Below, in pieces: positions 22,277-48,949 of a DNA stretch of 64,000 nt. This DNA comes from Candidatus Poribacteria bacterium (GTDB lineage: Bacteria; Poribacteria; WGA-4E; WGA-3G): assembly GCA_965218285.1 (NCBI GenBank), contig OZ244616.1:1255827-1319826 (forward strand), in the 5' to 3' direction. How positions within the stretch are numbered: the stretch's first letter is position 1; every line of letters starts with the position of its first letter. The notes under the pieces were generated by a model. It searched no databases, had not been told where the DNA came from, and saw nothing but the letters and a program-made list of their open reading frames with translations. The position numbers were made by a program, and so were the translations under genes.

Positions 22277-22690
22277 CACTCTTCGGGCTGGAGACCCCTC
22301 GCCTTTAGGCAGGGGAGGAAAGCCCGCCTCCTATTATAGTTATAATTTGTCCCCAAAAGGGGGAGTGCTGTTTTATCTCCACCTGCACACTGGGAGTCTG
22401 GATTCAGTTGTGCTGCTTCGTTCAGTGAGACTGTCACTACTCGCTTACTTGACCTGACACGATGTCTTTACCAGAAAATAATGGCTATAAGCCCACGCTC
22501 TCGCGGTATATGTTTCCCCATCGACATCACGGGATCAGAGCGGATACAGACTTGGGGAGCATCCGTAACATCTTGTTGCCTGCCACGACAAGACCCGCGA
22601 TATATCGTCTAGTCAACCGTTTAACTTGTGGAGTGGACGCTTGGCATGCGCTTCGCACAAGCCCCGATGCTTTAGCGCGGGGTTATTGAC
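22277..22690 (-). mobile_element. Non-autonomous IscB/IsrB-type IS200/IS605 element carrying an omegaRNA-like scaffold (copy 1)
   Basis: Near-identical inverted copy at 48531-48949; terminal hairpins; TTCAT flank and TTGAC end; no credible ORF. Confidence 0.8.
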
Positions 22691-22723
22691 TCTTCTCCTC
22701 CTACTATTAATCTGATCAATCTT

Positions 22724-22914
22724 ATACCAAACTAACGCGATTTGAAGTCTTCTGATAAAGTCAGCATTGCAAGGCACGGGGACCTCGCGCTACGAATCGG
22801 GTTAATTTAGTATTACTCAAATTTGTTTTTGAAGTCTTCTGATAAAGTCAGCATTGCAAGGCACGGGGACCTCGCGCTACGAATCGGGTTAATTTAGTAT
22901 TACTCAAATTTGTT
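22724..22914. repeat. Two tandem REP-carrying units
   Basis: TTTGAAGTCTTCTGATAAAGTCAGCATTGCAAGGCACGGGGACCTCGCGCTACGAATCGGGTTAATTTAGTATTACTCAAATTTGTT repeated twice. Confidence 0.85.
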
Positions 22915-23101
22915 AGTGCGTGCTTCGGTGATACACCATCTATATTCTGAAATAACATCTATAAATCCGTTAAAGTATATCACTTTTTAGATTAAACGTC
23001 AACGTGAAATTGGGGTGGTTTAATCAAAATCTACTTGTAATATATCCGATGATATTGTAAAATACGCATAAGTAATATAAAATATCAGGAGAACCTCTAA
23101 A

Positions 23102-24052
23102 ATGCTAAAAGCTGGATTTATCGGTGCAGGGGGACGCAGCCAAGGCGCGCATTATCCAAGTGTCAACCGTCTTGAAGACGATGTTGAGATGTCCGCAGCT
23201 TGTGAACTTGACGAAGGAAAACTTGCACAAGTTGCACAAAAATATGAGTTCCCACACACCTTTACTGACCACCGTAAGATGTTGGATACACTTGATTTAG
23301 ATGTAGTTTATTGTGTGATGAACGAAAAGTGGATTTTACAACCTGCCCTGGATTGCCTCAACGCAGGAAAACATATTTTTATTGAAAAACCTCCCGGCGC
23401 AACGAGTGATGAAACACAACAATTGTTGGAAGCAGCAGTTGCCAATGATGTATACTGTATGGTTGGGTTTCAACGTAGGTTTGCCGCTGTTACACGCGAA
23501 GCAATGCGTAGGGTCTCAGAAAAAGGTCCCGTTTCCTTAGCAGTTACAACATTTAACAAGCAGGTGCTCGGCAGTAACAGAGAATTCACAACGACGCTTT
23601 GGAATGATGTCTGTCACGTTGTTGATCTGCTCCGCTATATGGCAGGTGGAGAACCCGTTGAAGTCACAGCACATCGCGACATGTTTGGCTCGGAACAGCG
23701 TAACTTCTATACCGCTTTCGTGCGTTTTGATAATAATGTCACTGGGGTTGTTTTTGGTAATCGTGCATCGGGGGGACGCGTGCTAAGGTCTGAATTACAC
23801 GGTGTCGGTATAGGATGTTACATGAAAATCCCTGAAGAAATCGAAATATATGAGAACAACCAAAGGAATGTTATGGGAGGTTGGGAAGTAGATGGTGTTG
23901 ACGAACGCGATTCTGCAAGTTACGAAGGTGTGCTTACAATGCATCAACACTTTGTAGACTGTGTGCGAAATAAAAAAGTTCCACTTACCGACCTACGCGA
24001 TGTTATCCATTCTATTCACCTTGTTGACCAAATAGAAGGTCCTTTATCTTAA
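23102..24052 (+). CDS. Gfo/Idh/MocA-family oxidoreductase
   Basis: GFIGAGG, AGKHIFIEKP, VGFQRRF, HVVDL. Confidence 0.92.
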   Translation: MLKAGFIGAGGRSQGAHYPSVNRLEDDVEMSAACELDEGKLAQVAQKYEFPHTFTDHRKMLDTLDLDVVYCVMNEKWILQPALDCLNAGKHIFIEKPPGATSDETQQLLEAAVANDVYCMVGFQRRFAAVTREAMRRVSEKGPVSLAVTTFNKQVLGSNREFTTTLWNDVCHVVDLLRYMAGGEPVEVTAHRDMFGSEQRNFYTAFVRFDNNVTGVVFGNRASGGRVLRSELHGVGIGCYMKIPEEIEIYENNQRNVMGGWEVDGVDERDSASYEGVLTMHQHFVDCVRNKKVPLTDLRDVIHSIHLVDQIEGPLS

Positions 24053-24184
24053 CGTGAGTTTGATATGTGGCAAATTCTAAAAATATGCGGACATCTTCGT
24101 AGGGGTTAGGTTGCCTAACCCCTACGGGCGAGGGGATCTCGCCCCTACGAGCAGCACGAAGTCTCGTTTTTACCAAACTCACGT
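24052..24184. mobile_element. ACGTGAG-type MITE with two REP hairpins
   Basis: TAACGTGAGTTTG...CAAACTCACGTTA; GTAGGGGTTAGGTTGCCTAACCCCTAC and GGGCGAGGGGATCTCGCCCCTAC inside. Confidence 0.75.
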
Positions 24185-24543
24185 TATTCGAACAGAACGA
24201 TCCGATTCGTCAACAACTCCTTGGCGGTGGGACGAATGCCAACGGTCATTTTTCTCCGAAGGATGTTGATGTGCCTTTGAAGGTATGGCTTGAAGATAAT
24301 AGTGCTATTTCAAGGTGACTGTCGCGAGTTTATTGAAAGTACAATCTCTTTTCTAACTTTTATTGCTAATTGATCTGATATTTCTCATACTGGTCTTGAA
24401 CCTAATAATAATCAATAGAAACAAGGTCCAACGCCATGAAAATGCGTTAATGAGTTTAGAGAACCGACACGGTGTGCATACGAACTTAGGTGTAAAAGTT
24501 TTGATAAATATCAGTATATTTAGGTTCCAAATGGAGACAACTA

Positions 24544-25431
24544 ATGTCAGAAAGAAAGCACAATTTGGAAAGTATAGATCTTACGAAAGAACGAAAAGTA
24601 AGGGATCGAAAACAGAAAGAAGAAACCCGCGGTAAGCATTATTATGCAAATGCCAATAGTTTTAGTCGGGAAAATAATCGGTTACCTGATGAGTTTACTA
24701 ATAAGATTGTCTGTGGTGACTCAAAACTCGTCCTTCAGGAATTACCGGATAATTGCATTGATCTTATCTTCACTTCACCCCCATATAACTTTGGGCTGGA
24801 TTACGAACAGACCGAAGACGCATTCGCGTGGGATTCCTACTTCAAGGTGTTATTTGGTATTTTTGATGAGTGCATCAGAATTCTGAAGTATGGAGGACGT
24901 ATTATCGTAAACGTCCAACCTCTTTTTTCAGATTATATCCCAACGCATCATTTTATTTCACAATACTTTATGCGTAAAAAACTTATCTGGAAAGGTGAGA
25001 TTTTATGGGAAAAAAACCACTACAATTGCAAGTATACAGCTTGGGGTAGTTGGAAGAGTCCATCAAGTCCGTATCTCAAATATACGTGGGAATTTTTAGA
25101 AATCTTTTGCAAAGGTTCGTTGAAAAAAACGGGTGATTCAAAAAATGCCGATATTGACGCAGAATCATTCAAGAATTGGGTCTCGGCTAAATGGACAATA
25201 GCACCTGAGCATAAAATGAAGGAATTTGGACATCCAGCAATGTTTCCTGAAGAATTAGCAAATCGAGTACTGAAGTTGTTTAGTTTTAAAGGAGATGTTA
25301 TTCTTGATCCTTTTGCGGGTGTTGGAACAACTTGTCTCTCAGCACATATAAATCAGCGTCTCTATTTGGGAATTGACATTTCGCCTGAGTATTGCCAAAC
25401 AGCAGAAGATCGATTGCGCCTTTTATTCTGA
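24544..25431 (+). CDS. Site-specific DNA methyltransferase (N4-C/N6-A, beta class)
   Basis: TSPPY before HPAMFP and DPFAGVGTT. Confidence 0.93.
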   Translation: MSERKHNLESIDLTKERKVRDRKQKEETRGKHYYANANSFSRENNRLPDEFTNKIVCGDSKLVLQELPDNCIDLIFTSPPYNFGLDYEQTEDAFAWDSYFKVLFGIFDECIRILKYGGRIIVNVQPLFSDYIPTHHFISQYFMRKKLIWKGEILWEKNHYNCKYTAWGSWKSPSSPYLKYTWEFLEIFCKGSLKKTGDSKNADIDAESFKNWVSAKWTIAPEHKMKEFGHPAMFPEELANRVLKLFSFKGDVILDPFAGVGTTCLSAHINQRLYLGIDISPEYCQTAEDRLRLLF

Positions 25432-25475
25432 ATAGTCTTTATTTATAACGCTTCTTGTAAAGATGGGATAAATCA

Positions 25476-26174
25476 ATGCCAAATGAACTCGATTACCCAG
25501 ACTGCGAGTCAATTGTAGAATTGTATACGAAAAGTGTCCAGTCAATGTTTGGCAAGAAACCTGGAGAGATACGTGGACAAAAAGGCGCACTTGTAGAGAA
25601 TATTATTGATGCTATCACACTTCTTGCATGGAAAGAAATAGGCGGTGAATTGCCCCGCTTTAATGTAAAGAAGCAATCCGAAAGAATTGTTATTAACGAT
25701 GCTTATGTCAAAAATCTGCCAGATGAATATATTAAGTTACATATTCAAAGGAATAAAGGTAAATATATTTGCAAGGTAGAACTTGATCGGGCGATTGAAA
25801 TAGATGGTAAGTTGGTTATTGGTATCGAATGCAAGTCTTATATTGAAAATGCGATGCTCAAAAGGACTTTGAAAGATTTTGAGTTAATCGAAAAACTCCT
25901 CTATCCACAACTTATTTTTTGTGTGTTTCAATTTGAAAATGGCTTAGGAGGAGATTACGGAGAAGTAAGTAAACAGGTTCAGTTAGGTAGTGAACCAACT
26001 CATACTTTACTATCTCATACTCCAACAGTAAGGTTAGAAATCATAACCCTCCTTGATGGAAATAGAAAATCAAATAGGGAAATACATAAGCCACAATATT
26101 TTAAGGAATTGCCAGTTGAGAATGTAGTTATTTGTGTTGGTAAATTTCGGGAAATACTTGAGCCCTTTGTTTAG
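25476..26174 (+). CDS. Putative type II restriction endonuclease
   Basis: Directly after the methyltransferase; E...LD...IECKSY PD-(D/E)xK-like motif. Confidence 0.65.
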   Translation: MPNELDYPDCESIVELYTKSVQSMFGKKPGEIRGQKGALVENIIDAITLLAWKEIGGELPRFNVKKQSERIVINDAYVKNLPDEYIKLHIQRNKGKYICKVELDRAIEIDGKLVIGIECKSYIENAMLKRTLKDFELIEKLLYPQLIFCVFQFENGLGGDYGEVSKQVQLGSEPTHTLLSHTPTVRLEIITLLDGNRKSNREIHKPQYFKELPVENVVICVGKFREILEPFV

Positions 26175-26263
26175 TAAAGATCACTCCCAGACACAGGAAT
26201 TATTGTAAATAAGTAAGATGTGGAAACATAATTAAGATATTGATATTAATAACGGAGGAAGTT

Positions 26264-26512
26264 GTGTTAACCAAAATCCAGAAATCAGAGAACAGCGATG
26301 ACATCTACTTAACAAAGAATATGTTGCTGGCAGCACAAATGAACGTAGGAGATGATGTCCAGGTTACGATTCAAAACGGTAGGATAATCGTTGAAACCGT
26401 TGCCCAAGCGCGTAGACGAACTGATTTGCAAGCATTACTTGCCAAAATGCCAGAAGATTATCAACCAGAAGAAATAGATTGGAATAAGCCTGTTAGTAAA
26501 GAGGAATGGTAG
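26264..26512 (+). CDS. mazE: MazE/AbrB-family antitoxin, no toxin partner
   Basis: GGAGG + GTG; TKIQK...VGDDV...GRIIVE...LLAKMP...EEIDWNKPVSKEEW. Confidence 0.8.
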   Translation: MLTKIQKSENSDDIYLTKNMLLAAQMNVGDDVQVTIQNGRIIVETVAQARRRTDLQALLAKMPEDYQPEEIDWNKPVSKEEW

Positions 26513-28107
26513 AGCAAATTAAATCTGTTAAGAACATGAAATATAGAAAGTTTCATCGTCCATATCTAATATATTCACTTCTCATCCACATTGTCCTGCT
26601 GCTGGGTGTGTGGTGGCTTGCTTCAAAGGATGAATCTCCGTTGCCATTCATAGATGAGATTATCGGGGACTTTGTACTGATGCCTCGTTCTGCTGTATTG
26701 AAGCCGCCAGAACCGATTGAACCACCACTAGTTAAAACTGATATTCCTATTGAAGAGGCCAAGAAATCGCCTGCTCCACCGAAACCGACAGTTGATTTGA
26801 ACGCCGAGTGGCTAACAAGTGATAGTAATCAGGAAAGTATCCCTACAGTTGGGATTCGTAGACAAGAAAACCTTGATGGTCAACGAAAATCGAATGACAC
26901 TTTTACAGGTGGCACACACAATGTTCGGAATACTAATATTGGACAAAAAATAGACATTCAAACTACAAGTGTTAAAATTAATAGAGATCTGTTTGCTTTG
27001 TCAACAACCTCTGCAGATCCACAAGCAGAAACAAATCCGATAGAGTTAGACACAAGTGACACCTTAAATGGTGTTTCGCCAACTGTAGGTGCTCCTAAGA
27101 TACATTACGGAAGTCAACGTGGGGATGCGCTGCGAGCAACAGGAATGAGCAATGCATGGGGAGGCGGCGGTTACTCGGGTGGTGGCAAAGTCGGCGGAAA
27201 CTATATTGAAATGATGAAGGATATTGCTCAAGAACTGACTGCAGCAACGACATCTGAAAAGGTTGATATCGTTTTTATTATTGATGAAACCGCAAGTATG
27301 GTTGACAATATACGCGGAATTCGGGCGTATTTTGAATACTTCTATGAGGTCTTCCAACGAGAGGGACTCAATGCCAACTATGGATTGGTAACCTTTACAG
27401 ATAAAACAAAAATGCATGGACAAACAGATGATCTCGGTAAATTCAGAAATTGGCTTTTCAAGATAGATGTAGATCACGGTGGAGACATCTCAGAGGCAGG
27501 ATTAGATGCCCTGATGACTGCTGTTAAAAAGATTAAATTTCGCCGAAACGCACAACGTTTCTTTATTTTCGCAAGTGATGCAGCATTCCATGACGCAGAT
27601 TATGATGGTCGGTCTGTCCATAGCCTGGATGAAGTTATCGCAACCTTGCAAAAGGAACAGATTCGCGTTGAAGTGATTGGTATTGACTATTTGCCTATCA
27701 AACAGATTGCAATGGCAACAGGTGGTACGTGGCGCGCAATTCCGGGTAAAGGCTATCTTGAATATGTGCCGCCAATAACTCTAACTGCTAAAATGTTGTC
27801 AAAATTGGGCACACTCAGTATTGATGGTGGTACTGTTGGTGATAAAATTACTGTGTATGTCAATAACCCACCACGTCCAAAGCGGTTGACGTTGACGTGG
27901 AAGGTTCTTAACCCGTTAGGTGAGAGATGCTACGGTCCCTTCAAGGAAAAAATAGAAATTCCAGATGATACTTCAACGAAAATAGAATTGACGCCTGCTC
28001 TTGATAGTACTGCATTTCAGACTATCCCCGGTATTTACACCGTTATTTATCGTCTTGAAAATGATCGAGGACACAAAAGCATTCTCCGCAGAACATTAAC
28101 ATATTAA
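26506..28107 (+). CDS. Membrane-anchored VWA-domain protein
   Basis: SLLIH TM anchor, Pro-rich linker, DIVFIIDETASM, GGDISEA, SDAAFH; start may be 26536. Confidence 0.85.
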   Translation: MVEQIKSVKNMKYRKFHRPYLIYSLLIHIVLLLGVWWLASKDESPLPFIDEIIGDFVLMPRSAVLKPPEPIEPPLVKTDIPIEEAKKSPAPPKPTVDLNAEWLTSDSNQESIPTVGIRRQENLDGQRKSNDTFTGGTHNVRNTNIGQKIDIQTTSVKINRDLFALSTTSADPQAETNPIELDTSDTLNGVSPTVGAPKIHYGSQRGDALRATGMSNAWGGGGYSGGGKVGGNYIEMMKDIAQELTAATTSEKVDIVFIIDETASMVDNIRGIRAYFEYFYEVFQREGLNANYGLVTFTDKTKMHGQTDDLGKFRNWLFKIDVDHGGDISEAGLDALMTAVKKIKFRRNAQRFFIFASDAAFHDADYDGRSVHSLDEVIATLQKEQIRVEVIGIDYLPIKQIAMATGGTWRAIPGKGYLEYVPPITLTAKMLSKLGTLSIDGGTVGDKITVYVNNPPRPKRLTLTWKVLNPLGERCYGPFKEKIEIPDDTSTKIELTPALDSTAFQTIPGIYTVIYRLENDRGHKSILRRTLTY

Positions 28108-28171
28108 TTTCAGTAGACACGTCCCGAAATGTCATAACCTATATATAAACACACTCTAATGCCGAGAAAAT

Positions 28172-29341
28172 ATGAAAAACCTTATTTTTGAACAGTGTCA
28201 TCATCACTTTAACGATATTGTCGCTATACGCCGCGACATACACCAACATCCTGAACTTGAATTTGATGTTGAACGTACAGCCGGTATTGCTGCAGATGCG
28301 CTTGACGCACTTGGCATGGAAGTCAAAACAGGTATAGGAAGAACTGGGGTTATCGGTGATCTTGAAGTTTCAGGTGCAACAAAACGTATCGCGTTGCGCG
28401 CGGATATGGATGCTCTCCCAATTCAGGAACAGACTGATGTTCCCTATAAATCAACAATAGATGGCAAAGCGCACTTATGTGGACACGACGCACACACTGC
28501 GATGCTCATCGGCACAGCAAGAATACTATCTTATTTCAAAAGTAGTCTCAAGGCAAATATCCGATTTATCTTTCAACCGTGTGAAGAGGCGTTCCCCGGT
28601 GGTGCGCTATCAATGATTGCGGATGGCGCGATAGAAGACGTTGACGAAATCTACGGCATACATGTCTTTCCGCTGTATCCTGTCGGTCAGTATGCGACAT
28701 GCCCCGGTCCGATGCTTGCGCAATCGGACACCTTTGAGATTACAATAACAGGGAAAGGTGGACATGCTGCATTTCCACACCTCACTGTTGACCCGATTAT
28801 CGTTGGTACACAGTTTGTAAACGCAGCACAATCAGTTGTTTCAAGAAATGTGAATCCGTTAGACTCCGCTGTTGTCAGCATTACACAGTTTCACGGTGGA
28901 GATGCCAAAAACGTAATTCCTGCCTCTATAACACTTGGGGGTACGGTTCGGACTCTGGACAAAACGGTTCAGACAAGTATTAGGACACAGTTGGAAAACC
29001 TACTTGCTGGCATCGCGAATGCACACGATGCAACTTACACATTTGATTATCAAAAGGGATGTCCGGTAACATATAACCATGAACCTTGTGTTGACGTTGT
29101 TCTATCATCAGCGCAAACGTTAGTCGGGAATGATAATGTCATATATCCTATATCTCCAATACTTGGGGGAGAAGATTTCGCATGCTATTCGCAGAAGGTT
29201 CCTGCTTGTTTTGTAATGGTTGGTGCTGGAAATGAGCAGGAAGGTATCGCCAATATGTGCCATCACCCACAGTTTGATATAGATGAAACTTGTATGATAT
29301 ACGGCATGGCACTTACTGTGAGTTTGGGTTTAATAGAATAA
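28172..29341 (+). CDS. M20D amidohydrolase
   Basis: RRDIHQHPEL, LRADMDAL, CGHDAH, FQPCEE, GKGGHAA, EDF, HHPQF. Confidence 0.93.
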   Translation: MKNLIFEQCHHHFNDIVAIRRDIHQHPELEFDVERTAGIAADALDALGMEVKTGIGRTGVIGDLEVSGATKRIALRADMDALPIQEQTDVPYKSTIDGKAHLCGHDAHTAMLIGTARILSYFKSSLKANIRFIFQPCEEAFPGGALSMIADGAIEDVDEIYGIHVFPLYPVGQYATCPGPMLAQSDTFEITITGKGGHAAFPHLTVDPIIVGTQFVNAAQSVVSRNVNPLDSAVVSITQFHGGDAKNVIPASITLGGTVRTLDKTVQTSIRTQLENLLAGIANAHDATYTFDYQKGCPVTYNHEPCVDVVLSSAQTLVGNDNVIYPISPILGGEDFACYSQKVPACFVMVGAGNEQEGIANMCHHPQFDIDETCMIYGMALTVSLGLIE

Positions 29342-29349
29342 CAGGATTT

Positions 29350-39648: not shown

Positions 39649-39750
39649 GTGTAAGTGATACAGTCATTAGATTCCACAAGAAACAACTGTTTAGACAGAT
39701 AATACGATAATTCATAACATTTTAGATTTAATTTGGAGGATTCATATATA

Positions 39751-39966
39751 ATGGATGCAAAATTGAAAAAGATACAAATAACCCCGATGAAGTTTGACAA
39801 AGATGGGGACGTGCAAAAAGAGGAATTTTCAACCCTCACAATAGAGATTCCGATGGATAGTGCGGGGCAACGTGAAGCAATTGTGGCAATGCTACAACTT
39901 CTCAGTCAAGAGTGGGTTATCCTACACGTTGAAGGCAAAACACCCGGAGCCGTAGGAACCGCTTAG
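39751..39966 (+). CDS. Small hypothetical protein
   Basis: GGAGG RBS before MDAKLKK; abuts the next gene. Confidence 0.65.
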   Translation: MDAKLKKIQITPMKFDKDGDVQKEEFSTLTIEIPMDSAGQREAIVAMLQLLSQEWVILHVEGKTPGAVGTA

Positions 39967-39973
39967 GGCGATC

Positions 39974-41125
39974 ATGAAAAAAAATTATCTCTTTACGCCA
40001 GGTCCAACGCCAATTCCGCCAGAAGCGTTGTTAGCAATGGCACAGCCAATTGACTACCACCGAAGTGAAGATGCTATAGCGTTAATTAAAGACGTTTTGG
40101 AAAAACTTAAACACGTTTTTCAAACTGACAATGACGTTCTCTTCTTGACATCGTCTGGAACAGGTGCAATGGACGGAGCAGTTGCTAATCTATTGTGCCG
40201 AGGTGATAAAGTTATAGTTATTCGAAGCGGCAAATTTGGTGAACGGTGGGCAGAAATCTGTGAGGCTTATGAGATTGAAGTTATCCCTATTGATGTTGCA
40301 TGGGGAGATTCAGTTGCACCTGAAGCAGTGGAAGCACAGTTAACTGCGAATCCCGATGTAAAAGCAGTTTTCGCTACACTTTGTGAAACGTCTACAGGTG
40401 CTTTGCACGATATTGAGGCACTCGCGGGTTTGACACAATCCAGTCCGACACTGCTTGTTGTTGATGCGGTTAGCGCGCTCGGTGCGGACGATTTACAGAT
40501 GGACAATTGGGGTGTGGATGTTGTCGTGTCCTGTTCACAAAAAGGTTTGATGACGCCTCCGGGACTCGCTTTTGCTGCCCTCAATCGTCGCGCGTGGGAA
40601 GCAGCAGAGCAGTCAAACCTACCGAAATATTACTTTGACTTCCGAAAAGCACATCAGCGCGGACTTGAAGGATCAGTACCCTACACACCCGCCATCACGC
40701 TCCTCACAGCACTGCAGTGTGCCTTAAACCACATCTGTGTTGAAGGCATTCGTAATACCATTGCACGTCATAAACGTTTAGCGTTAGCAACACGAAGTGC
40801 TATAAAAGCGATGGGACTTCCTCTGTTTGCTACATCTCCTGCAAATACGCTTACTTCAATCCGTTTACCGGAAGAAATTGATGGAAAAGCGTTTATCAAG
40901 TTGATGCGCGAAAAGCATGGCATTACGTATGCGGGTGGACAGGGTGATTTGAGTGGGAGGATCCTCCGAATTGCACACCTCGGTTGGATGAATGAAAACG
41001 ATGTTATCGTTGCTATTTCTGCCTTTGAGAGAGGTTTAGCAGAAATCGGATATGATGTTTTACTTGGCGCGGGTGTCACTGCTGCTCAAAAAGTATTTAA
41101 TAAGATGACCAATCAAGAAGGATGA
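39974..41125 (+). CDS. Class V aminotransferase (serine/alanine-glyoxylate aminotransferase family)
   Basis: FTPGPT, SSGTGAM, CETSTG, VDAVS, SQKGLMTPPG. Confidence 0.93.
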   Translation: MKKNYLFTPGPTPIPPEALLAMAQPIDYHRSEDAIALIKDVLEKLKHVFQTDNDVLFLTSSGTGAMDGAVANLLCRGDKVIVIRSGKFGERWAEICEAYEIEVIPIDVAWGDSVAPEAVEAQLTANPDVKAVFATLCETSTGALHDIEALAGLTQSSPTLLVVDAVSALGADDLQMDNWGVDVVVSCSQKGLMTPPGLAFAALNRRAWEAAEQSNLPKYYFDFRKAHQRGLEGSVPYTPAITLLTALQCALNHICVEGIRNTIARHKRLALATRSAIKAMGLPLFATSPANTLTSIRLPEEIDGKAFIKLMREKHGITYAGGQGDLSGRILRIAHLGWMNENDVIVAISAFERGLAEIGYDVLLGAGVTAAQKVFNKMTNQEG

Positions 41126-41185
41126 AGAATAGAAGGAAGGGCATCAGTTCGTACATTGGTAAACTTCCATCTTTCTGAAAACAAT

Positions 41186-42460
41186 ATGTCTGAAACCACA
41201 CTTTTTGATGTTTCGTATGAACAACGAAAAAAACCGCTACTGAGTAAAACCTTAGAACGACTCCATCCCATCTACAGCAAGTCAGAACTCAATGTCTTAC
41301 GGATTGACAGCACAAGCCGAGAAGGGTTATCGCAACGTTCAGGACGCGGGTTTGTCAATCGGGATATTCTGGAAACCGTTCTCGGTAATCTGCTGGAATG
41401 CGTTGCACCAGGTTCCCACAATGCGCCACATCTCCAGAACCAAAAACGTGAACTCTCGGAAGCGATCGAAGAGGTTGCCGATCAGTTATATGCGATGGTT
41501 GCACAATCATTTTTGGCAGTAGCAGATGAAACACACCTCGGTGCTGCCCTTGAAACAGTCTTTTCGCTTCTTTGGGAACTACCTCGGTTAAAAAGCCGTG
41601 CGCTCTGGAATCGCTTCGCATCACTCAAAGACCCTGCTGTATGGGATGCGTATCTGCTACATAACGGCATCTCTCGCGAAAAACTTGCAGCCCTTGATTT
41701 GCGATCCCAAATTGACAACGCAATTAGGGAACGTACATTTGAACCTTACGAAGATTTTCTTGGTACTTTGAATCTTGCCACAGTATTGAATTATCAACTT
41801 CAACTGGTCGTCAGTACCTATCCGGGTTGGCGTGTGCTTTTCTACCACGATGTGGCACACGCTTTGACGCGAAGCGAACCACCTGAAGAGAATCCAGACC
41901 TCCATAGAGTTCCAGTACCGCTGTTGCCTCGCGCTATTTCTGAACTCGGTGGTCGTTACTACCAAGCGGATTTGCATCCTGAAACACAAATAGGCGATGC
42001 TAACTTATTAGAACATCCGCATCGTGGTGTGACAACTGGACAGACAGGTATTATCGGTTCAGGATGTATAATCTACCCTTGTACACTTGGCGGCTTGAGC
42101 GTCAAAGTGAAACAACGTCATCCTGTCATTGGCGATTTTGTTGAGATAGGCACTGACACGAGCCTTCTCGGTCCAGTCCAAGTTGCTGATTACTCAACGG
42201 TCGGAACAAACACTGAGATTTACGGGTTTGTTGAGATAGAACAAAAGTGTCGCATCGGTTCATCTGTAATTATTGGAACTATCCGTGGCGCGGCAGAACA
42301 TCCGGGTAAAATTATGATTGGAGATGGGGTGCGCATTGGTGATGGTACGGTTATAGAAAATACCTCTGAAATGGATCTTATTATACCGACGCGCGCACAG
42401 ATTCCTGCGCGGAGCCACGTGGCAAATGATGGGTTTGGATTTCCCAGATATGTGACATAG
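41186..42460 (+). CDS. Serine O-acetyltransferase-like hexapeptide-repeat protein with long N-terminal extension
   Basis: DLHPETQIG...EHPHRGV...CTLGG...QRHPVIGD resembles the CysE beta-helix; start uncertain. Confidence 0.65.
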   Translation: MSETTLFDVSYEQRKKPLLSKTLERLHPIYSKSELNVLRIDSTSREGLSQRSGRGFVNRDILETVLGNLLECVAPGSHNAPHLQNQKRELSEAIEEVADQLYAMVAQSFLAVADETHLGAALETVFSLLWELPRLKSRALWNRFASLKDPAVWDAYLLHNGISREKLAALDLRSQIDNAIRERTFEPYEDFLGTLNLATVLNYQLQLVVSTYPGWRVLFYHDVAHALTRSEPPEENPDLHRVPVPLLPRAISELGGRYYQADLHPETQIGDANLLEHPHRGVTTGQTGIIGSGCIIYPCTLGGLSVKVKQRHPVIGDFVEIGTDTSLLGPVQVADYSTVGTNTEIYGFVEIEQKCRIGSSVIIGTIRGAAEHPGKIMIGDGVRIGDGTVIENTSEMDLIIPTRAQIPARSHVANDGFGFPRYVT

Positions 42461-42518
42461 AATGGTAAACGGTAGTTTATAATTTCCCACCAAGAAACAA
42501 AACGGAATATATGAAAAC

Positions 42519-44081
42519 ATGAAAAAAAATGAGCGCGCACTCATCAGCACTTATGACAAAACGGATCTCATAGAGATTGCAAATATCCTTGTGCAATACG
42601 GTGTTGAAATACTTTCCACAGGTGGCACAGCCAGACACCTTCGTGAAGCTGGAATTGAACTCATGGATGTCTCTGACTACACAGGTTTTCCTGAGATGTT
42701 AGATGGCAGAGTTAAGACACTCCATCCAAAAATTCATGGTGGATTGCTTGCACAATGGGATAATTCAGAATATGCAGCGCAAGCCAATGACAACGGAATA
42801 AGCCCAATTGACATGGTGATTTGTAACCTATATCCATTTGAGGCAACCATTGCCAAACCTGCTGTCACTCTTGAAGAGGCAATTGAGAATATCGATATTG
42901 GTGGACCAACAATGATTCGCGCAGCAGCAAAGAATTATAAACATGTCGCTGTCCTTACAAATCCTAACCAATACTCACAAATTATTGATGATTTAGATGC
43001 AAACGATGGATGTCTATCTGAAGAGACTCGATTTGAATTGGCAAAAACAGCGTTCCACCATACCGCACACTATGATGGCGCAATTTCCACTTATCTCGCC
43101 AATTTAGAATCTGAAGATGATTTCGCGGATAGTTTAACACTCCGATTCCAAAAAGCAGACTCACTAAGATATGGTGAAAATCCACATCAACGTGCTGCTT
43201 TCTATAGAACTGAAACTTCGCAAGTACCCTGCGCTGCTTGGGCGAAACAACTGAATGGATCACCGCTATCGTTCAACAACATTCTTGATTTAGATGCCGC
43301 CTTAGAGATTGTCAAAGATTTCACAACTCCCGCGTGTGCAATCATCAAGCATAATAACCCGTGTGGACTTGCAACTGATGACAACCTACAGGATGCCTTC
43401 ACAAACGCGCTGGAATGCGATAGGACTTCAGCTTTCGGTTCAATTGTGGGTTTAAATCGCAAAGTTACTATTCAGACAGCGAATACTATTCGAGATGCTG
43501 CAAAATCGGGTGTAAAAATAGAAGCGATAATCGCGCCGAGTTATACCGAAAAAGCACTACGTGCCTTATCCCGTGTTGAAAGTCGACGGATACTTGAAGT
43601 AGGATCGCTTTCAGATTCGGAACCAACTATGCAATTCCGTAATGTTATTGGTGGCGTGCTTGTTCAAGAACAGGATGTACATAACATTGAAAAGGATGAA
43701 CTAAAGGTTGTCACTAAGCAGAAACCTACGCATGAAGATATTGAATCTCTGCTTTTTGCATGGAAGGCATGTAAACATGTCAAATCTAACTGTATCCTGC
43801 TGGCACAAGGTACGCAGACGGTCGGTATAGGCGCGGGACAGATGAGTCGTGTAGATGCTGCTATTATCGCTGTCCGTAAGTCAGGTGGAAAAGCGAATGG
43901 ATCCGTATTAGCCTCTGATGCCTTCTTTCCATTCCCTGACGGTGTTGAAATTGCTGGTGATGCTGGTATACGAGCAATTATTCAACCCGGTGGCTCAGTA
44001 AACGATGCGGCTGTGATTGAGACTGCGGACGCTTATGGTATGGCGATGGTGTTGACAGGTGTTAGACATTTTAGACACTAA
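42519..44081 (+). CDS. purH: Bifunctional AICAR transformylase/IMP cyclohydrolase
   Basis: STGGT, GRVKTLHPKIHGG, IDIGGP, LRYGENPHQ, KHNNPCG, ASDAFFPF, RHFRH. Confidence 0.98.
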   Translation: MKKNERALISTYDKTDLIEIANILVQYGVEILSTGGTARHLREAGIELMDVSDYTGFPEMLDGRVKTLHPKIHGGLLAQWDNSEYAAQANDNGISPIDMVICNLYPFEATIAKPAVTLEEAIENIDIGGPTMIRAAAKNYKHVAVLTNPNQYSQIIDDLDANDGCLSEETRFELAKTAFHHTAHYDGAISTYLANLESEDDFADSLTLRFQKADSLRYGENPHQRAAFYRTETSQVPCAAWAKQLNGSPLSFNNILDLDAALEIVKDFTTPACAIIKHNNPCGLATDDNLQDAFTNALECDRTSAFGSIVGLNRKVTIQTANTIRDAAKSGVKIEAIIAPSYTEKALRALSRVESRRILEVGSLSDSEPTMQFRNVIGGVLVQEQDVHNIEKDELKVVTKQKPTHEDIESLLFAWKACKHVKSNCILLAQGTQTVGIGAGQMSRVDAAIIAVRKSGGKANGSVLASDAFFPFPDGVEIAGDAGIRAIIQPGGSVNDAAVIETADAYGMAMVLTGVRHFRH

Positions 44082-44091
44082 TTCCGAAAAT

Positions 44092-44120
44092 TTGACGGTA
44101 AGTCTATTTTGTGGTATACT
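44092..44120 (+). promoter_or_regulatory. sigma70 promoter
   Basis: TTGACG-17 bp-TATACT upstream of AGGAGG. Confidence 0.65.
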
Positions 44121-44139
44121 TCTTAAGCAGGAGGAACAC

Positions 44140-44409
44140 ATGAAAACGTATTCATTTCAAGTTGTGTTAGAAAAAGACAAATGGCCCGATGAACCAGATG
44201 AGAACGCTGTCTGGCGCGCTTATATCCCAGCGTTAGTACATCAAGGTGCTGCGAGTTGGGGATATACACGAAAAGAGGCATTAAAGAATTTGCAGGATGC
44301 TGTTGATTTACTTGCGGAATGTTTATTAGAACAAGGAGAAGAACTCCCTTCTGAACCCTACCCACAGATTCAGGTCAGTGATGTTCCCTTAATCGTTGTA
44401 AATGCTTAA
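44140..44409 (+). CDS. hicB: HicB-like antitoxin, no toxin partner
   Basis: F.VVLE...W.A..P.L..GA.SWG.T..EAL.N..DA...GEELP. Confidence 0.85.
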   Translation: MKTYSFQVVLEKDKWPDEPDENAVWRAYIPALVHQGAASWGYTRKEALKNLQDAVDLLAECLLEQGEELPSEPYPQIQVSDVPLIVVNA

Positions 44410-44429
44410 TTCGCTCAGGAAAATGAAAA

Positions 44430-45602
44430 TTGCCTACCACATTCTCAATCCCTCCCACAGTAATTACCGGTGCCGGTGTATCCGAAAAAGTCGGTGAACA
44501 AGCCAAACGTCTTGGTGCCACGAACGCACTTATCATAACAGATCCAGGTATTGCCAAAATTGGATATGCCGACCAAATTGCCAAACACTTACATAACAAT
44601 GGAGTAGCCAGCTCTATCTTTTCTGATGTTACACCCGATCCAACTTTACAAAATGTTACTGATGGACTAAAGCAATACCTTACCGAAAGCTGCGATGTGA
44701 TAATTAGTATCGGCGGCGGAAGCGCGATTGACTGTGGTAAAGGCATCGCCATCAAACTCACGAACGATGGCGAATTCGCTGATTATATGGGTGTAGACAA
44801 AATCCCGAATCCGGGTGCTCCCTCAATTGCTATTCCTACAACTGGTGGCACAGGAAGCGAAGTCTCTAAAGTCACTGTTATCACCGACACAGAACGTAAT
44901 GTCAAAATGATGTTGAGTAGTGCTTGTTTACTTGCATCTGTCGCTTTAGTTGATCCACTGCTATCCGTTACTACCCCACCTCACCTTACTGCAGCTGTCG
45001 GTGTTGATGCGTTGACGCATGCAATAGAGGCGTATATCTCTAAACGTGCTCAACCGATTACAGATGCACTCGCTTTGAAAGCCATTGGGTTGATTTCAGG
45101 TTCACTACGTCAGGCGTGGGCAGATGGTGGAAACATTCCTGCACGCACAGATATGATGCTTGGTGCGTCAATTGCTGGTATGGCGTTCAGTAATTCATCG
45201 GTGGCATTAGTCCACGGTATGTCCCGACCGATCGGAGCATACTTTCATATCCATCACGGCTTATCAAATGCAGTGCTGCTGCTTGATGTAATGGAATTTA
45301 GCGTTGTTGGTGCGCCGCAGCGTTTTGCTGATATTGCAAAAGCGATGGGTGAATTGATTGATGGGTTGCCCCTAATGCAGCAAGCAGACGCATCCATATC
45401 TGCTGTGGAACGTCTGGTCAACGATGTTCAGATGCCGCGTCTCGGAGAAATTGATATTGATAAGGATAAGTTTGAGCAGATATTAGATCAGATGGCAGCT
45501 GATGCTATTGCAAGTGGCAGTCCCGCAAATAATCCTCGACAAGCAACCCAGGAAGAGATAGTATCACTATACAGAAAATGCTTTTCTCGACGAAGTAGAT
45601 AG
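44430..45602 (+). CDS. Iron-containing alcohol dehydrogenase
   Basis: GGGSAID.GK, PTTGGTGSE, DALTHAIE, HGMS, HGLSNA. Confidence 0.93.
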   Translation: MPTTFSIPPTVITGAGVSEKVGEQAKRLGATNALIITDPGIAKIGYADQIAKHLHNNGVASSIFSDVTPDPTLQNVTDGLKQYLTESCDVIISIGGGSAIDCGKGIAIKLTNDGEFADYMGVDKIPNPGAPSIAIPTTGGTGSEVSKVTVITDTERNVKMMLSSACLLASVALVDPLLSVTTPPHLTAAVGVDALTHAIEAYISKRAQPITDALALKAIGLISGSLRQAWADGGNIPARTDMMLGASIAGMAFSNSSVALVHGMSRPIGAYFHIHHGLSNAVLLLDVMEFSVVGAPQRFADIAKAMGELIDGLPLMQQADASISAVERLVNDVQMPRLGEIDIDKDKFEQILDQMAADAIASGSPANNPRQATQEEIVSLYRKCFSRRSR

Positions 45603-45615
45603 CCAAATATAACTA

Positions 45616-45705
45616 ATACCAAATTAACTTGATTCGACGTCTTCTGATAAAGTCGGCATTGCGAGGCACGGGGACCTCGCGCTACAAATCGGGGTAATTG
45701 GGTAT
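45616..45705. repeat. ATACCAAATTAAC-type REP-carrying element
   Basis: Inverted ends around GCGAGGCACGGGGACCTCGCGCTAC. Confidence 0.8.
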
Positions 45706-45742
45706 AATATAAAATTAAAAGGTAGTCCTGAGATAAAACAAG

Positions 45743-46381
45743 ATGCCACGCGATGTCTTAAACAGAAATCAAATCTTACAACTCGCCACAATCGTACGGA
45801 AGATAACCATAACGCTTCTGTTATCCCTTTCAATAGCAGCTTGTGGTACATCCAAAATCCTAATTAATGATAGTGCCGCACCCATCTATTATGGCACAAT
45901 TGAGAACATTGACAAAGTTTATGATGGTGATACAATCCAAGATGTTTCTATCCGGATCTATCCGTTCAATAATTTTATACCGAACGTTAGTGAGATGCCG
46001 TTGACCATCTGGCCCGGTGTTGAAAGACGACAAGATGGAATTTATAGTCTGATAGATATTAGAATCTCGGGAATCGATGCTCCAGAAAAACGTCCAGTGC
46101 GTGGCGATCGTTCTGAAGAATCAATTCAAAGAGAAAAGGCTCGTGCTGAAGCGGCAACAAATTTTCTCAAGCAGTTAATCCTTGAAAACAGTGAAGCGGA
46201 TGGAGAACTCGGATTTTACATTCAAAATCCTGAATTTGGGACATACGCTGGTAGAATTGTCGCGGATATTTTCTTTTTCAATGGTGGCATTTCAATCAGT
46301 ATTGCAGATGAATTGATTGATAATGGGCACGCTGTTGCGTATAGTGGTGGGACAAAAACGCACGATTGGGGGGCAGAATGA
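45743..46381 (+). CDS. Thermonuclease (SNase)-family lipoprotein
   Basis: Lipobox IAAC, VYDGDT, IRISGIDAPE, YAGRIVAD, GHAVAY. Confidence 0.8.
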   Translation: MPRDVLNRNQILQLATIVRKITITLLLSLSIAACGTSKILINDSAAPIYYGTIENIDKVYDGDTIQDVSIRIYPFNNFIPNVSEMPLTIWPGVERRQDGIYSLIDIRISGIDAPEKRPVRGDRSEESIQREKARAEAATNFLKQLILENSEADGELGFYIQNPEFGTYAGRIVADIFFFNGGISISIADELIDNGHAVAYSGGTKTHDWGAE

Positions 46382-46470
46382 ACGTGAACAAGATAGAAGG
46401 ATAGAGCAATTAACTCAGGAAATTGAATCACTCAAGCAACAACGCATTGTAAATCCCTAAATAAACTCAA

Positions 46471-47319
46471 ATGATTATTGATTCTCATACACACGCATGG
46501 CCACGGTGGCCCTACCAACTTCCTGTTCCTGATGATGAAAGCCGCGGAAAGGTTGAACAACTCCTCCACGAGATGGATTTGCACGACGTTGATCAGGCAG
46601 TTCTTATCTGTGCGCGGATTGAAAGAAATCCCGATAATAACGACTACGCTGCAGCGTGTGTTGAACGTTACTCGGATCGGCTTATTCAGTTCGCAGATGT
46701 TGATTGTTCATGGACAGAAACATACCACACCGACGGTGCAGCCGAGAGACTAAAAACCGCAGCAGAGAAATACAAACTCAAAGGATATACTCACTACCTC
46801 AGAGGCGATGATGATGGCAGTTGGTTCTTTTCGGAAGAGGGACAACGTTTCTTTCAAACAACCGCAGAACTTAAGCTCATCGCAAGCATAGCGATGGGAA
46901 GTCATCAACACGTCCCACTCCAAAAGTTAGCAGCACAGTTTCCCACGGTTCCGTTTCTGTGTCATCACATGGCTGGTGCGCGTGCTGGAGAAGCACATCC
47001 CTACCCACAACTTAAAGAGGTACTCGCTTCCGCAAATGTCCCGAATATTCATGTGAAGATGTCAGGATTTGCCTACGTCTCACAGGTCTCATGGGATTAT
47101 CCATATTCTGATACACACAGGGTTGTTCGTGTGCTTTACGAACATTTCGGTCCTGGTAGACTTTGCTGGGGTTCAGATTATCCGGTCGTTCGTAACTTTA
47201 TGACCTACCAACACGCCCTTGAAGCGTTCCGCACACACTGCACTTTTATCCCAGATACCGACAAAGCGGAAATCTTGGGAGGTACCCTCCACAGATTGTT
47301 ATCTGAAGCAGGATTATAG
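46471..47319 (+). CDS. Amidohydrolase_2-family protein
   Basis: IIDSHTH, CHHMA, WGSDYP. Confidence 0.9.
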   Translation: MIIDSHTHAWPRWPYQLPVPDDESRGKVEQLLHEMDLHDVDQAVLICARIERNPDNNDYAAACVERYSDRLIQFADVDCSWTETYHTDGAAERLKTAAEKYKLKGYTHYLRGDDDGSWFFSEEGQRFFQTTAELKLIASIAMGSHQHVPLQKLAAQFPTVPFLCHHMAGARAGEAHPYPQLKEVLASANVPNIHVKMSGFAYVSQVSWDYPYSDTHRVVRVLYEHFGPGRLCWGSDYPVVRNFMTYQHALEAFRTHCTFIPDTDKAEILGGTLHRLLSEAGL

Positions 47320-47327
47320 TCACCTTG

Positions 47328-47449
47328 CAGGGTTATTTAGTTTTAGGCTTTTTGTCCATTTTATCCGAAAAGTCGCGATTCGGAGATCGCTCGGACAGGG
47401 GAAAGTCTTAGATTGAAAATCTAAATATTCGGAAAACTAAATAGCCCTG
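47328..47449. mobile_element. MITE with CAGGGYTATTTAGTTTT inverted ends and 9-bp TSD
   Basis: CAGGGTTATTTAGTTTT...AAAACTAAATAGCCCTG; GTCACCTTG at 47319-47327 and 47450-47458. Confidence 0.88.
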
Positions 47450-47552
47450 GTCACCTTGATTATTTACTCACAATCTGTTATAATGATATTTAATGAGCAA
47501 TTTCATTTTGCATTTAGAAAGGTCAATCTGAAATAAGAAGGGAGAAATTGAG

Positions 47553-48206
47553 ATGAAAAGAATCATTGTTTTTACAACCTTGACACTTATGCTAATATCT
47601 GGGTTAGCGTTTGCGACAGAAACCCAGATTGTGCAAGGTGAGTATATTGAAGCTCGGTCAGCAAGCGTTTATGTTGGCGCATGCCATTTCGGTGCTGAAT
47701 TTGTTGAAGGTGGAAAAGAAGCTACACTCATTTGGAACATCCATAGTGGAAGTTGGAACGACGTTTCATTAGATGGCTTAACCGTTGTTGCTGTCGTCAG
47801 TGCCAAAAACAACCTGGCGATTGATACGAAAACACGCAAGAGTGTCCTGTATGTGGATGTTAAAGCCACGCCAGAACAACGTGCAGCAATTAGCAGCATG
47901 CTTGCTACAAAACGCATGGATGTTCTCGGTAAAGTCGTTACGACACAAACCGCACCAATTTCATTCGCGAAAAAAGGCACGAAATACGATGTGACAGTAG
48001 GAAAAGTTTTGGCACTGTCTGCAAATCGCTATCCGTGTGAGAAATGCACACAACCCCATCAAATTTGGTATGAACCGCTGACAAAAGTTCAAAATCCGAT
48101 TGTTGGTAAATCTGAAATCTATCGCTATAAAGACTCTTACCTTCCGGTGAATTGGCAGCAAGGTGATGCAGCTAACAACGTTTTTGTAGGTAATTTTTCG
48201 ATGTAA
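47553..48206 (+). CDS. Secreted DUF1326-like protein
   Basis: Signal peptide, GEYIEAR...VGACH, LYVD..ATPEQRAA. Confidence 0.65.
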   Translation: MKRIIVFTTLTLMLISGLAFATETQIVQGEYIEARSASVYVGACHFGAEFVEGGKEATLIWNIHSGSWNDVSLDGLTVVAVVSAKNNLAIDTKTRKSVLYVDVKATPEQRAAISSMLATKRMDVLGKVVTTQTAPISFAKKGTKYDVTVGKVLALSANRYPCEKCTQPHQIWYEPLTKVQNPIVGKSEIYRYKDSYLPVNWQQGDAANNVFVGNFSM

Positions 48207-48213
48207 TCATTAA

Positions 48214-48247
48214 TGTCTGTAGTTACCTCTCGTTGTAACTACAGACA
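48214..48247 (+). terminator. Hairpin after the DUF1326-like gene
   Basis: TGTCTGTAGTTAC...GTAACTACAGACA. Confidence 0.5.
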
Positions 48248-48397
48248 CGACTCTTCTCACTCTATCCCTTCCTGTTTAACTTCTCCTATAGATTCAGTTG
48301 ATTTTTCTTGAATTTTTTTGTTCAATATGCTATCGTTTTTACAAACAAATACAATGCTATGCCTTATCAGTTTTCCCGATACCGTAGACCATAAGTT

Positions 48398-48524
48398 ATA
48401 CCAATTCTGAAAAATAAAATACCATTACGGAGATGTCCGACATTTTGAATGTGAGAGGCGCAATGAATTGCGCGAGGACAAACGCGTTTTTTGTTAATGT
48501 GATGCCATCATTCAGAAATGGTAT
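48398..48524. repeat. ATACCAATTCTGAA-type REP-carrying element
   Basis: ATACCAATTCTGAA...GGCGCAATGAATTGCGCG...TTCAGAAATGGTAT. Confidence 0.75.
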
Positions 48525-48530
48525 TAGGAG

Positions 48531-48745
48531 GTCAATAACCCCGCGCTAAAGCATCGGGGCTTGTGCGAAGCGCATGCCAAGCGTCCACTCCACAAGTTAA
48601 ACGGTTGACTAGACGATATATCGCGGGTCTTGTCGTGGCAGGAAACCACAAGATGTTACGGATGCTCCCCAAGTCTGTATCCTCTCTGATTCCGTGATGT
48701 CGATGGGGAAACATATACCGCGAGAGCGTGGGCTTATAGCCATTA
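48531..48745 (+). ncRNA. omegaRNA/HEARO-like RNA (second copy on the minus strand at ~22480-22690)
   Basis: GTCAA/GTTGAC pairing, CTAGAC, GGATGCTCCCCAAGTCT hairpin whose loop complements GTCGATGGGGA, terminal GGCTTATAGCC. Confidence 0.65.
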
Positions 48746-48949
48746 TTTTCTGGTAAAGACATCGTGTCAGGTCAAGTAAGCGAGTAGTGACAGTCTCACT
48801 GAACGAAGCAGCACAACTGAATCCAGACTCCCAGTGTGCAGGTGGAGATAAAACAGCACTCCCCCTTTTGGGGACAAATTATAACTATAATAGGAGGCGG
48901 GCTTTCCTCCCCTGCCTAAAGGCGAGGGGTCTCCAGCCCGAAGATTTTG
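48531..48949 (+). mobile_element. Non-autonomous IscB/IsrB-type element with omegaRNA-like scaffold (copy 2)
   Basis: GTCAATAACCCCGCGCTAAAGCATCGGGG ... CCCCTGCCTAAAGGCGAGGGG; followed by ATGAA. Confidence 0.8.

Follow-up and report, generated by a model that had tools for sequence, protein, structure and literature searches.

The DNA stretch studied here (the window) comprises 64,000 nucleotides (nt) of a Candidatus Poribacteria bacterium (contig OZ244616.1, positions 1,255,827 to 1,319,826) and contains two inverted copies of a short element without a protein-coding gene, copy A (22277-22690, minus strand) and copy B (48531-48949, plus strand). Their coordinates and near-identity, as described in an earlier note made from the sequence alone, were borne out by a repeat finder and by pairwise alignment: inverted arms of 297 nt (22280-22576 and 48648-48944) and of 116 nt (22575-22690 and 48531-48646) were each 99% identical, and the bodies differed by three substitutions and a 3-nt indel, with a variant end reading CACTC versus CAAAATC. 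Each copy is made up of three parts, an IsrB-type RNA scaffold (positions 1 to ~208), a module of ~115 nt in the position otherwise taken by the nuclease gene isrB, and the hairpin end opposite the scaffold. Copies A and B are most probably non-autonomous, protein-less transposons of the IS200/IS605 superfamily, similar to palindrome-associated transposable elements (PATEs) and of the ISC1/IsrB type, which would use the transposase TnpA and the nuclease IsrB in trans.

In copy A (all parts on the minus strand), the scaffold occupies 22483-22690 (element positions 1-208) and runs from GTCAATAAC through a GCUCCCCA/UGGGGA pseudoknot and a GAGA-loop hairpin (CGC-GAGA-GCG) to a GGGCUUAUAGCC hairpin; the motifs named earlier, GTCAA...TTGAC, GCTCCCCA/TGGGGA and GGGCTTATAGCC, are all present. 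A U-rich linker read from the sequence (AUUAUUUUCUGGUAAAGAC, 22464-22482) follows the last scaffold hairpin and is possibly the 3' end of the guide RNA (omega RNA). The structured module, which the earlier note had called cargo, lies at 22344-22463 (element positions ~228-347) and is followed by the left end in TnpA terms, i.e., the 3' end on the omega RNA strand (22277-22343), which carries nested hairpins, GGAGG..CCUCC and CCCCUGCCUAAAGGCGAGGGG, ends in ...CCCGAAGAGTG and is the same in all families. The target site and putative target-adjacent motif (TAM), ATGA, is at 22273-22276, its ATG being the start codon of a 627-codon open reading frame (ORF) that runs to 20393. On the other side, the candidate guide (22691-22710, ...TAATAGTAGGAGGAGAAGA) is formed by the 20-nt 5' flank that precedes the scaffold and includes the Shine-Dalgarno (SD) sequence GGAGG of the host gene; copy A is located exactly between the ribosome-binding site and the ATG of that gene. 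In copy B (plus strand), the candidate guide (48511-48530, ...TTCAGAAATGGTATTAGGAG) lies within the end of another repeat family (48446-48526), the scaffold (48531-48741) has a 3-nt insertion relative to copy A, the module (48761-48880; genome 1304587-1304706) is 100% identical to that of copy A, the left end (48881-48949) is the variant ending in ...CCCGAAGATTTTG, and the target site ATGA (48950-48953) opens no long ORF. By analogy with IsrB and IscB, the 20-nt 5' flank would act as the guide; these flanks were different in all 91 of 91 elements of the census described below.

Family size, target site and mobility

The whole genome (G000; 6,066,756 bases in a single contig) was searched with copy A by blastn, which returned 173 high-scoring segment pairs, including 40 that span ≥380 nt with 93 to 100% identity, a repeat far beyond chance in view of these numbers. 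Both copies claimed by the earlier note are thus present in the window, but the genome total of copies of at least 370 nt is about 41. Members of this family are 409 to 419 nt long, lack an ORF and are 93 to 100% identical. An exact start at GTCAATAAC was found in 40 of the 41 copies, every one after a different flank, and an intact other end, reading ...CCCGAAGA(GTG or TTTTG), in 38; three copies were interrupted by another insertion. In several copies (at genome positions 4300313, 4450993, 1939858 and 3545707), one and the same foreign sequence (...GCTTACTATTACCCATAAG...), presumably a further insertion sequence, interrupts the element close to its left end. The earlier judgment that the element holds no credible ORF was upheld, as the frame and length of short ORFs vary among subfamilies, with no frame conserved across them, and none of the three ORFs tried matched Pfam at an E value of ≤1.

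The intact end was followed by ATGA in 37 of 38 copies and by GTGA in one. Among 91 census elements, the fifth flank base was A in 60, T in 19, G in 10 and C in 2; ends in that census were found by a pattern requiring [AG]TGA, of which the count of 37 in 38 is independent. The flank proposed earlier as a TAM, ATGAA, is therefore fixed in its first four bases, ATGA, but not in its fifth. ATGA is compatible with the published TAMs of IsrB, NTGA or NTG (PMC9581776), from the former of which the first bases of the element itself, GTCA, differ at one position.

A sister genome (G049), with flanks 96 to 97% identical to those in the genome studied, carries neither window copy at the matching site. 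Its copy A site is element-free (...GATTAATAGTAGGAGGAAAACAA directly followed by ATGAAGCGAGG; the upstream part is also given as ...TAGTAGGAGGAAAACAA), as is its copy B site (...AACTTAGTCA directly followed by ATGAAAAATAAATT), and hence both window copies are recent insertions. G049 has copies of its own (nine matches of at least ~400 nt at 92 to 99%). When the flanks of 30 G049 elements were mapped onto the present genome, those of L069 and L083 were 0 nt apart and those of L093 and L089 were 2 to 3 nt apart, and several elements (L067, L079 and L085) were insertions shared by the two genomes. The empty sites and the 0-nt flank gaps together show precise insertion, without target duplication, 5' of ATGA. 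An RNA-library contig of a related strain likewise goes from 22276 to 22693 without copy A, with 26 other letters in its place; in the contig of run X19, these 26 letters resemble a tandem duplication of the stretch from the SD sequence to the ATG. A paralogous empty site for copy B was sought in the neighboring repeat family, of which the copy at 9362-9442 continues differently.

Further polymorphisms were seen. At three sites with identical flanks, different family members are present in G000 and G049: a 1,265-nt isrB element versus a 446-nt ORF-less one (5651941-5650677 versus L077), 432 versus 340 nt (2168379 versus L095), and an isrB element versus one of 337 nt (1054539 versus L080). A more plausible origin than independent hits on one of ~53,000 ATGA sites is an exchange of elements in place, perhaps through gene conversion between their common ends. 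The match of a related-strain RNA-library contig to the window stops at 23076, where the contig proceeds with GTCAATAACCCCAAGC, which indicates an element inserted there in the related strain, before ATAA and not ATGA.

Kinship with isrB elements and retention of the scaffold

The genome also encodes a candidate cognate nuclease: PF14239 (RRXRR) gave 28 matches, located in elements of 1,264 to 1,267 nt, 24 of which are of IsrB size, 20 of these 24 with an intact ORF of 342 amino acids (aa). These ~24 isrB elements (~1,265 nt) have the same GTCAATAAC start and the same ...GAAGAGTG end before ATGA as the ORF-less family, and are 83% identical to copy A over the first 186 nt and 90% identical over the last 58 nt (positions 357-414). 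The start codon of isrB is at element position 210 and is preceded by AAGGAG as ribosome-binding site, a word that at the same time forms the 3' strand of the hairpin with which the scaffold closes. For the 342-aa protein, PF14239 was the sole Pfam family (E 3.7e-30), and no HNH domain was found by Pfam; the nearest solved relative was DtIsrB (PDB 8dmb, E 1.4e-36, residues 3-316), whereas IscB structures matched only the N-terminal part and the NCBIfam model guided_IscB only residues 5-156, below cut-off. By eye, the motifs DPG, VED and DAHCVD could also be recognized. With a size close to the ~350 aa of IsrB, an N-terminal RRXRR/PLMP region, RuvC motifs and no HNH insert, the partner protein is, judged by its sequence, a clear IsrB homologue. 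In one 510-nt copy, both termini of the ORF are still present, and this copy is an isrB element with a simple internal deletion.

A census by nhmmer with a scaffold profile yielded 115 hits in this genome, 97 of them full length. The latter comprised 37 ORF-less elements of 409 to 419 nt (the family of copies A and B), 13 of 337 to 344 nt and 13 of 432 to 547 nt, 24 elements of IsrB size, 4 interrupted ones and 6 whose end was not located by the end pattern, such that ORF-less elements of <600 nt outnumber those of IsrB size by 63 to 24. Outside these 97 stands a minimal family of 216 to 220 nt, in which only the first ~85 nt (the outer stem and two hairpins) and the last ~70 nt are kept, with unrelated filler between. 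Its five copies (1412129, 2276546, 2405890, 4461089 and 5646074) lie at five different sites, all flanked by ATGA, and mark roughly the minimal ends for transposition. Because this family is dispersed without most of the scaffold, the scaffold is dispensable for transposition, and something besides transposition must therefore keep it in the ORF-less lines; its long retention there argues for an RNA function.

For a comparison of structures, a non-redundant set of 19 scaffolds was aligned, taken from this genome and from congeners. RNAalifold predicted 37 pairs, with compensatory changes in 22, to which 12 pairs were added by hand (a CUUGUG/CACAAG stem, two loop-hairpin extension pairs and the CCCC/GGGG pseudoknot). 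Canonical pairing was seen for all 49 of these pairs, in the ORF-less scaffold as well as in the isrB-linked one, and the 10 pairs that differ between the two all remained paired, 4 of them by double changes. The ORF-less scaffold thus retains the consensus RNA structure of the IsrB-linked scaffold, partly via compensatory changes. Its position at the transposon end and the unique flanks fit an omega RNA whose effector gene is present only elsewhere in the genome.

Related hairpins (CCCC..CTAAAG..GGGG), imperfect and subterminal, are present at both element ends. 5' of the hairpin feet, the element has the tetranucleotides GAGA (left end) and CAAG (right end), and the respective cleavage sites are TCAT and TGAC, all located where the earlier note had placed them; the feet differ at positions 1 and 4, complementing the two differences between the cleavage sites. 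In IS608, such feet pair with the cleavage sites, a rule with which these differences may be compatible. Subfamilies with a GAGC foot or a 3-nt insert at the foot are also multicopy. The principle of DNA guides at hairpin feet is set out by Meers et al. (2023, bioRxiv 10.1101/2023.03.14.532601). As to the transposase, PF01797 (Y1 transposase) gave three matches in the genome, the best (E 7.1e-40) being a 137-aa IS200/IS605 TnpA at 582016-582369 that is followed by a truncated tnpB-like ORF. About 100 nt upstream of it, TCAAATCTTCCGCTAC...CCTCGCCTTTTAAGGCGGGG resembles the element end CAAAATCTTCGGGCTGG...CCCCTCGCCTTTAGGCAGGGG, and we infer that this TnpA mobilizes the window family. The hairpin of the candidate TnpA (ATCAAATCTTCCGCTACAAAACCTCGCC...GGGGATGTAGTAG) recurs as a solitary copy in G049 (L170, about 1410-1475), ~30 nt upstream of the empty site of copy B.

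A structured RNA module in place of the nuclease gene

The module forms an extended hairpin with a GUGACAG loop, followed by a conserved GAACGAAGCAGC stretch and an H-type pseudoknot with an A-rich linker. It is common to the window family and to several ORF-less families of 440 to 463 nt, among which it is 72 to 100% identical; the scaffolds of the latter families are more divergent, some with a 38-nt insert. A covariance model (R1) was built from 11 sequences with four helices, the fifth, suspected pseudoknot helix being left out, and all five helices were scored in an alignment of 22 matches (19 distinct). Cells were paired in 91.8%, compared to 81.9% in shuffles (0 of 500 shuffles reached the observed value), 10 of 20 pairs were changed on both sides (shuffle mean, 5.1; 0 of 500), and the covariation score was 0.311, compared to ≤0.081 with slid partners. 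The pseudoknot helix, which lies outside the model, was 97.3% paired, with three of its four pairs changing on both sides. In the divergent copy L122, three helices were formed by unrelated yet complementary sequences, i.e., a hairpin stem GUCCA/UGGAC in place of GUGAG/CUCAC, a second hairpin CGGC/GCCG in place of CGCC/GGCG, and a pseudoknot CAGAC/GUCUG in place of CGUGU/ACACG. In a wider set of 42 matches (37 distinct), drawn from many records, 87.7% of cells were paired in the four helices of the model and the score was 0.352, compared to ≤0.083 in slid controls; these alignments were fitted to R1 and are hence biased towards the model. Module hairpin C had 70 to 74% paired cells in alignments A3 to A5, owing to a one-column misregister in X/Y-type rows, for which the shifted register was read by eye and left uncounted. 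Since G-U pairs are frequent, the structure was assigned to the omega strand, the opposite of that on which TnpA acts.

A module profile gave 59 hits in this genome, 54 inside census elements and 5 in truncated elements, the latter always downstream of a scaffold and on the same strand, and none in any of the isrB elements or the 337- to 344-nt elements of the census. In a collection of one genome per species, a strict module pattern matched 47 stretches, all in records titled Poribacteria; a full scaffold was present just upstream in 41 of the 47, and the element was 399 to 487 nt long where its end was located. None of the 47 module loci, taken as 8 kb each, gave an IsrB match by tblastn. 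With Poribacteria-wide modules lacking a nearby IsrB, scaffold and module together represent a protein-less lineage that is old and has diversified, rather than the outcome of a recent deletion. In the congener G041 (a 95% complete genome in one contig), a single scaffold-plus-module element of ~435 nt (L098, 1435-1865, minus strand) is located directly before the ATG of a 373-aa ORF.

This conserved pseudoknotted RNA of a Poribacteria-wide protein-less lineage is the new part of the present finding. In Rfam, searched with the module alone at E values of ≤10, only chance-level hits were obtained (best E, 1.3), which disfavors a known ribozyme, riboswitch (including preQ1) or small RNA family, and no description of such a module was found in Rfam or in the literature searched, which did not extend to the 2021 OMEGA paper, the HEARO paper and supplements. 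Most probably, it is as omega-strand RNA that the module has its effect, whether on processing, on stability or in another accessory role, and its predicted topology would suit a protein-binding, processing, stabilizing or sensing element. Candidate functions are to release or stabilize the omega RNA from the host transcript, to recruit IsrB made elsewhere, or to sense a signal via the pseudoknot with the A-rich linker. That it constitutes a new class of structured RNA, which replaces isrB in long-lived guide-RNA-only transposons throughout the Poribacteria and gives these elements a function of their own, is put forward tentatively, as a possibility that we hold to be rather less probable than its opposite.

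Proposed mobilization in trans, alternatives and known systems

Several features place copies A and B among PATE-like (ISC1-type) transposons: imperfect subterminal hairpins at both ends, neither terminal inverted repeats nor a target-site duplication, insertion specific for a short target (here ATGA, in a class with targets of 4 to 5 nt), the lack of a protein gene, ends in common with gene-bearing elements, and a Y1 transposase in the genome. The recently mobile stand-alone guide cassettes postulated by the earlier note are supported in this respect by ends, kinship and empty sites, and every refuting condition that the note had set turned out either favorable to it or neutral, but the use of TnpA and IsrB in trans stays at the level of a proposal. 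In the mechanism proposed, a Y1 transposase made elsewhere, for which the 137-aa TnpA is the candidate, would excise and insert the element as single-stranded DNA. An external promoter would drive transcription, in many cases that of the gene in whose 5' untranslated region (UTR) the element is located, and the omega RNA would thus include ~20 nt of flank as its guide. IsrB from full-length elements would load the ORF-less omega RNA in trans and, after excision, nick the empty site (guide plus ATGA), by which re-copying of the element would be favored, as was proposed for IS200/IS605 nucleases (Meers et al. 2023); the element start GTCA, being one position off NTGA, would spare the occupied site.

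A number of observations weigh against the reading of copies A and B as guide-RNA transposons served in trans. With regard to the scaffold, the match of copy A to the Rfam model HEARO (RF02033) stayed, with 32.5 bits (E 8.2e-5; 22573-22690, minus strand), far below the gathering score, 83 bits; for scaffolds that immediately precede intact isrB genes, the scores were no better (28.7 and 28.4 bits, likewise under gathering), and the low score is thus attributable to a model poor for this clade and not to a defect of the ORF-less copies. The letters of the scaffold pseudoknot are nearly invariant, so that covariation is no test of it, the compensatory changes of the scaffold may predate the loss of the ORF, and the whole element folded as a single sequence was no better than shuffles (z −0.30). 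With regard to the partners, the candidate TnpA is part of an IS605-type remnant whose end is merely similar to the element end (22-nt match, E 0.12) and is flanked by TTAT, not TCAT; five copies in which the presumed left-end DNA guide is changed from GAGA to GAGC are still at ATGA sites, which misfits a simple pairing rule; and PF14239 had no match in G041, the 95% complete one-contig congener, from which it follows that an ORF-less copy can persist without IsrB. Finally, the expression data are assembled contigs only, which show neither strand, ends nor level and leave transcription unproven. What these contigs do offer is a hint in favor of the reading. In a DNA-like run, the depth of family-specific contigs was 402 for the scaffold and 378 for the module/end region, ~30-fold that of the flank. 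By contrast, in three RNA runs, each from a different study, the depth of the scaffold contig exceeded that of the module/end contig 15.8-fold (3,476 versus 220), 3.1-fold (4,437 versus 1,417) and 10.5-fold (5,062 versus 483), with flanking gene depths of 6 to 53 in these libraries, and contig depth dropped between element positions ~200 and ~280. The drop, itself weak evidence, would be compatible with a stable RNA from the scaffold whose 3' end is close to, or inside, the first part of the module.

If the elements were plain parasites of TnpA only, of the type of miniature inverted-repeat transposable elements or PATEs, then scaffold and module would be baggage without present RNA function, and IsrB would be uninvolved. 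The ends do suffice for transposition, as the five dispersed 216- to 220-nt copies without most of the scaffold illustrate, G041 holds an ORF-less element without any PF14239 match, and copies that are 93 to 100% identical are too young for a per-copy selection signal. Yet baggage would not be expected to persist with compensatory changes, as scaffold and module do across ORF-less families 17 to 30% apart and in many Poribacteria records; the G-U pairs make the module structure specific for the omega strand, not for the strand of TnpA; and scaffold contigs were overrepresented in all three RNA runs. We therefore regard parasitism of TnpA alone as improbable, and retain the reading of guide-RNA transposons that draw on TnpA and IsrB in trans.

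In all families, elements are often found precisely between the SD sequence of a gene and its ATG. The position relative to genes was assessed for 87 elements. The flanking ATG opened an ORF of at least 100 codons in 39 of them, compared to 14% of random ATGA sites (binomial P = 4e-12), an SD-like word was in addition present in the 5' flank of 24 (compared to 2.6%), and the element orientation was always that of the gene downstream. This preference may simply reflect the ATGA target and the loss of insertions inside genes. A promoter scan of the element returned 1 site, on the antisense strand, versus 0.8 expected, and insertion at gene starts would, as these positions suggest, supply a promoter-less guide RNA with a host promoter. 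A link between the module and gene-start insertion was rejected (23 of 46 elements with the module versus 16 of 41 without; Fisher P = 0.39), and the AGGAGG word before the end hairpin was dropped as a substitute ribosome-binding site near the ATG, since it can pair with CCUCC in the same hairpin. That the elements are 5'-UTR regulatory RNAs co-opted by the host, with the module or the whole element controlling transcription or translation of the downstream gene, could account for their location and direction and for a module that ends in a pseudoknot with an A-rich linker ahead of the AGGAGG word, but is very unlikely, as the site preference follows from the target and from loss within genes, gene starts are equally common with and without the module, the insertions are very young and polymorphic between sister genomes, and AGGAGG can pair with CCUCC of the end hairpin.

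Besides the two copies, the window is dense with other short repeat families, found by the repeat finder at 15612-15723, 19471-20374, 22722-22914, 45608-45719, 53523-53660, 55608-55719 and 60971-61706, and further at 9090-9442, 17692-17808, 48446-48526 and 51788-51906. One of these repeats is a unit of ~90 nt (core GAGGCACGGGGACCTCGCGCTAC) that occurs singly or in tandem arrays of up to seven, and a second (core GAGGCGCAATGAATTGCGCG) occurs in 37- and 128-nt arrays; such short repeats adjoin both copy A and copy B. At Rfam gathering thresholds, the sole match in the whole window was a thiamine pyrophosphate (TPP) riboswitch at 62799-62897 (minus strand; 67.7 bits, gathering score 54.3).

The element class itself is already known, and if none of the readings given here were true, the present family would be one more well-documented member of it. 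The genome nonetheless represents a rich natural case of guide-RNA-only elements, given a ratio of ORF-less to nuclease-encoding elements of ~63 to 24, several families and many Poribacteria records. That elements are so frequently inserted, in a precise orientation, between a ribosome-binding site and a start codon points to a way in which a guide RNA lacking a promoter could be transcribed. Should the module assist the production or use of an omega RNA that has no nuclease gene of its own, it would show how guide-only elements survive, and it could then serve trans-supplied guides of small IsrB nickases.

Among known RNAs, HEARO (RF02033, the omega RNA of IscB) is the one to whose model the element aligns in its 5' stem (GUCAA...UUGAC), in the hairpins nested therein (CCCC..GGGG and CUUG..CAAG) and in its GGAUGC..CCCCAAG loop; the difference lies in a model built on IscB-type RNAs, against which the element reaches 32.5 of 83 bits. 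The omega RNA of DtIsrB (8dmb; Hirano et al. 2022, PMC9581776) has a homologous partner IsrB and a TAM, NTGA, that fits the ATGA flank, but its published length is 284 nt including the guide, compared to ~205 nt before the isrB start here, a comparison of lengths only. ISC1 transposons (e.g., ISC1-1_MA of Microcystis; Kapitonov, Makarova and Koonin 2016, PMC4810608) share the 5'-GTCA terminus, subterminal hairpins, the lack of a target duplication and insertion between N and ATGA, as confirmed by empty sites in related genomes; ISC1 encodes IsrB, whereas the window family, a derivative lineage, encodes no protein. Stand-alone omega RNAs of OMEGA systems that work in trans have been published before (Altae-Tran et al. 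2021, as summarized in PMC10691335 and PMC9581776), their biological role being stated as unknown in PMC10691335, and PATE-like IS200/IS605 elements "often encode omega RNAs" (Meers et al. 2023). As described there, such elements resemble the present ones in having no effector or transposase gene while being evidently mobilized, in taking the guide from the flank and in residing together with effector-encoding loci with matching ends. The elements described here differ from them in that the ORF-less form outnumbers the isrB elements and falls into several old families, and in that most ORF-less elements carry a structured module of ~115 nt in place of the gene.

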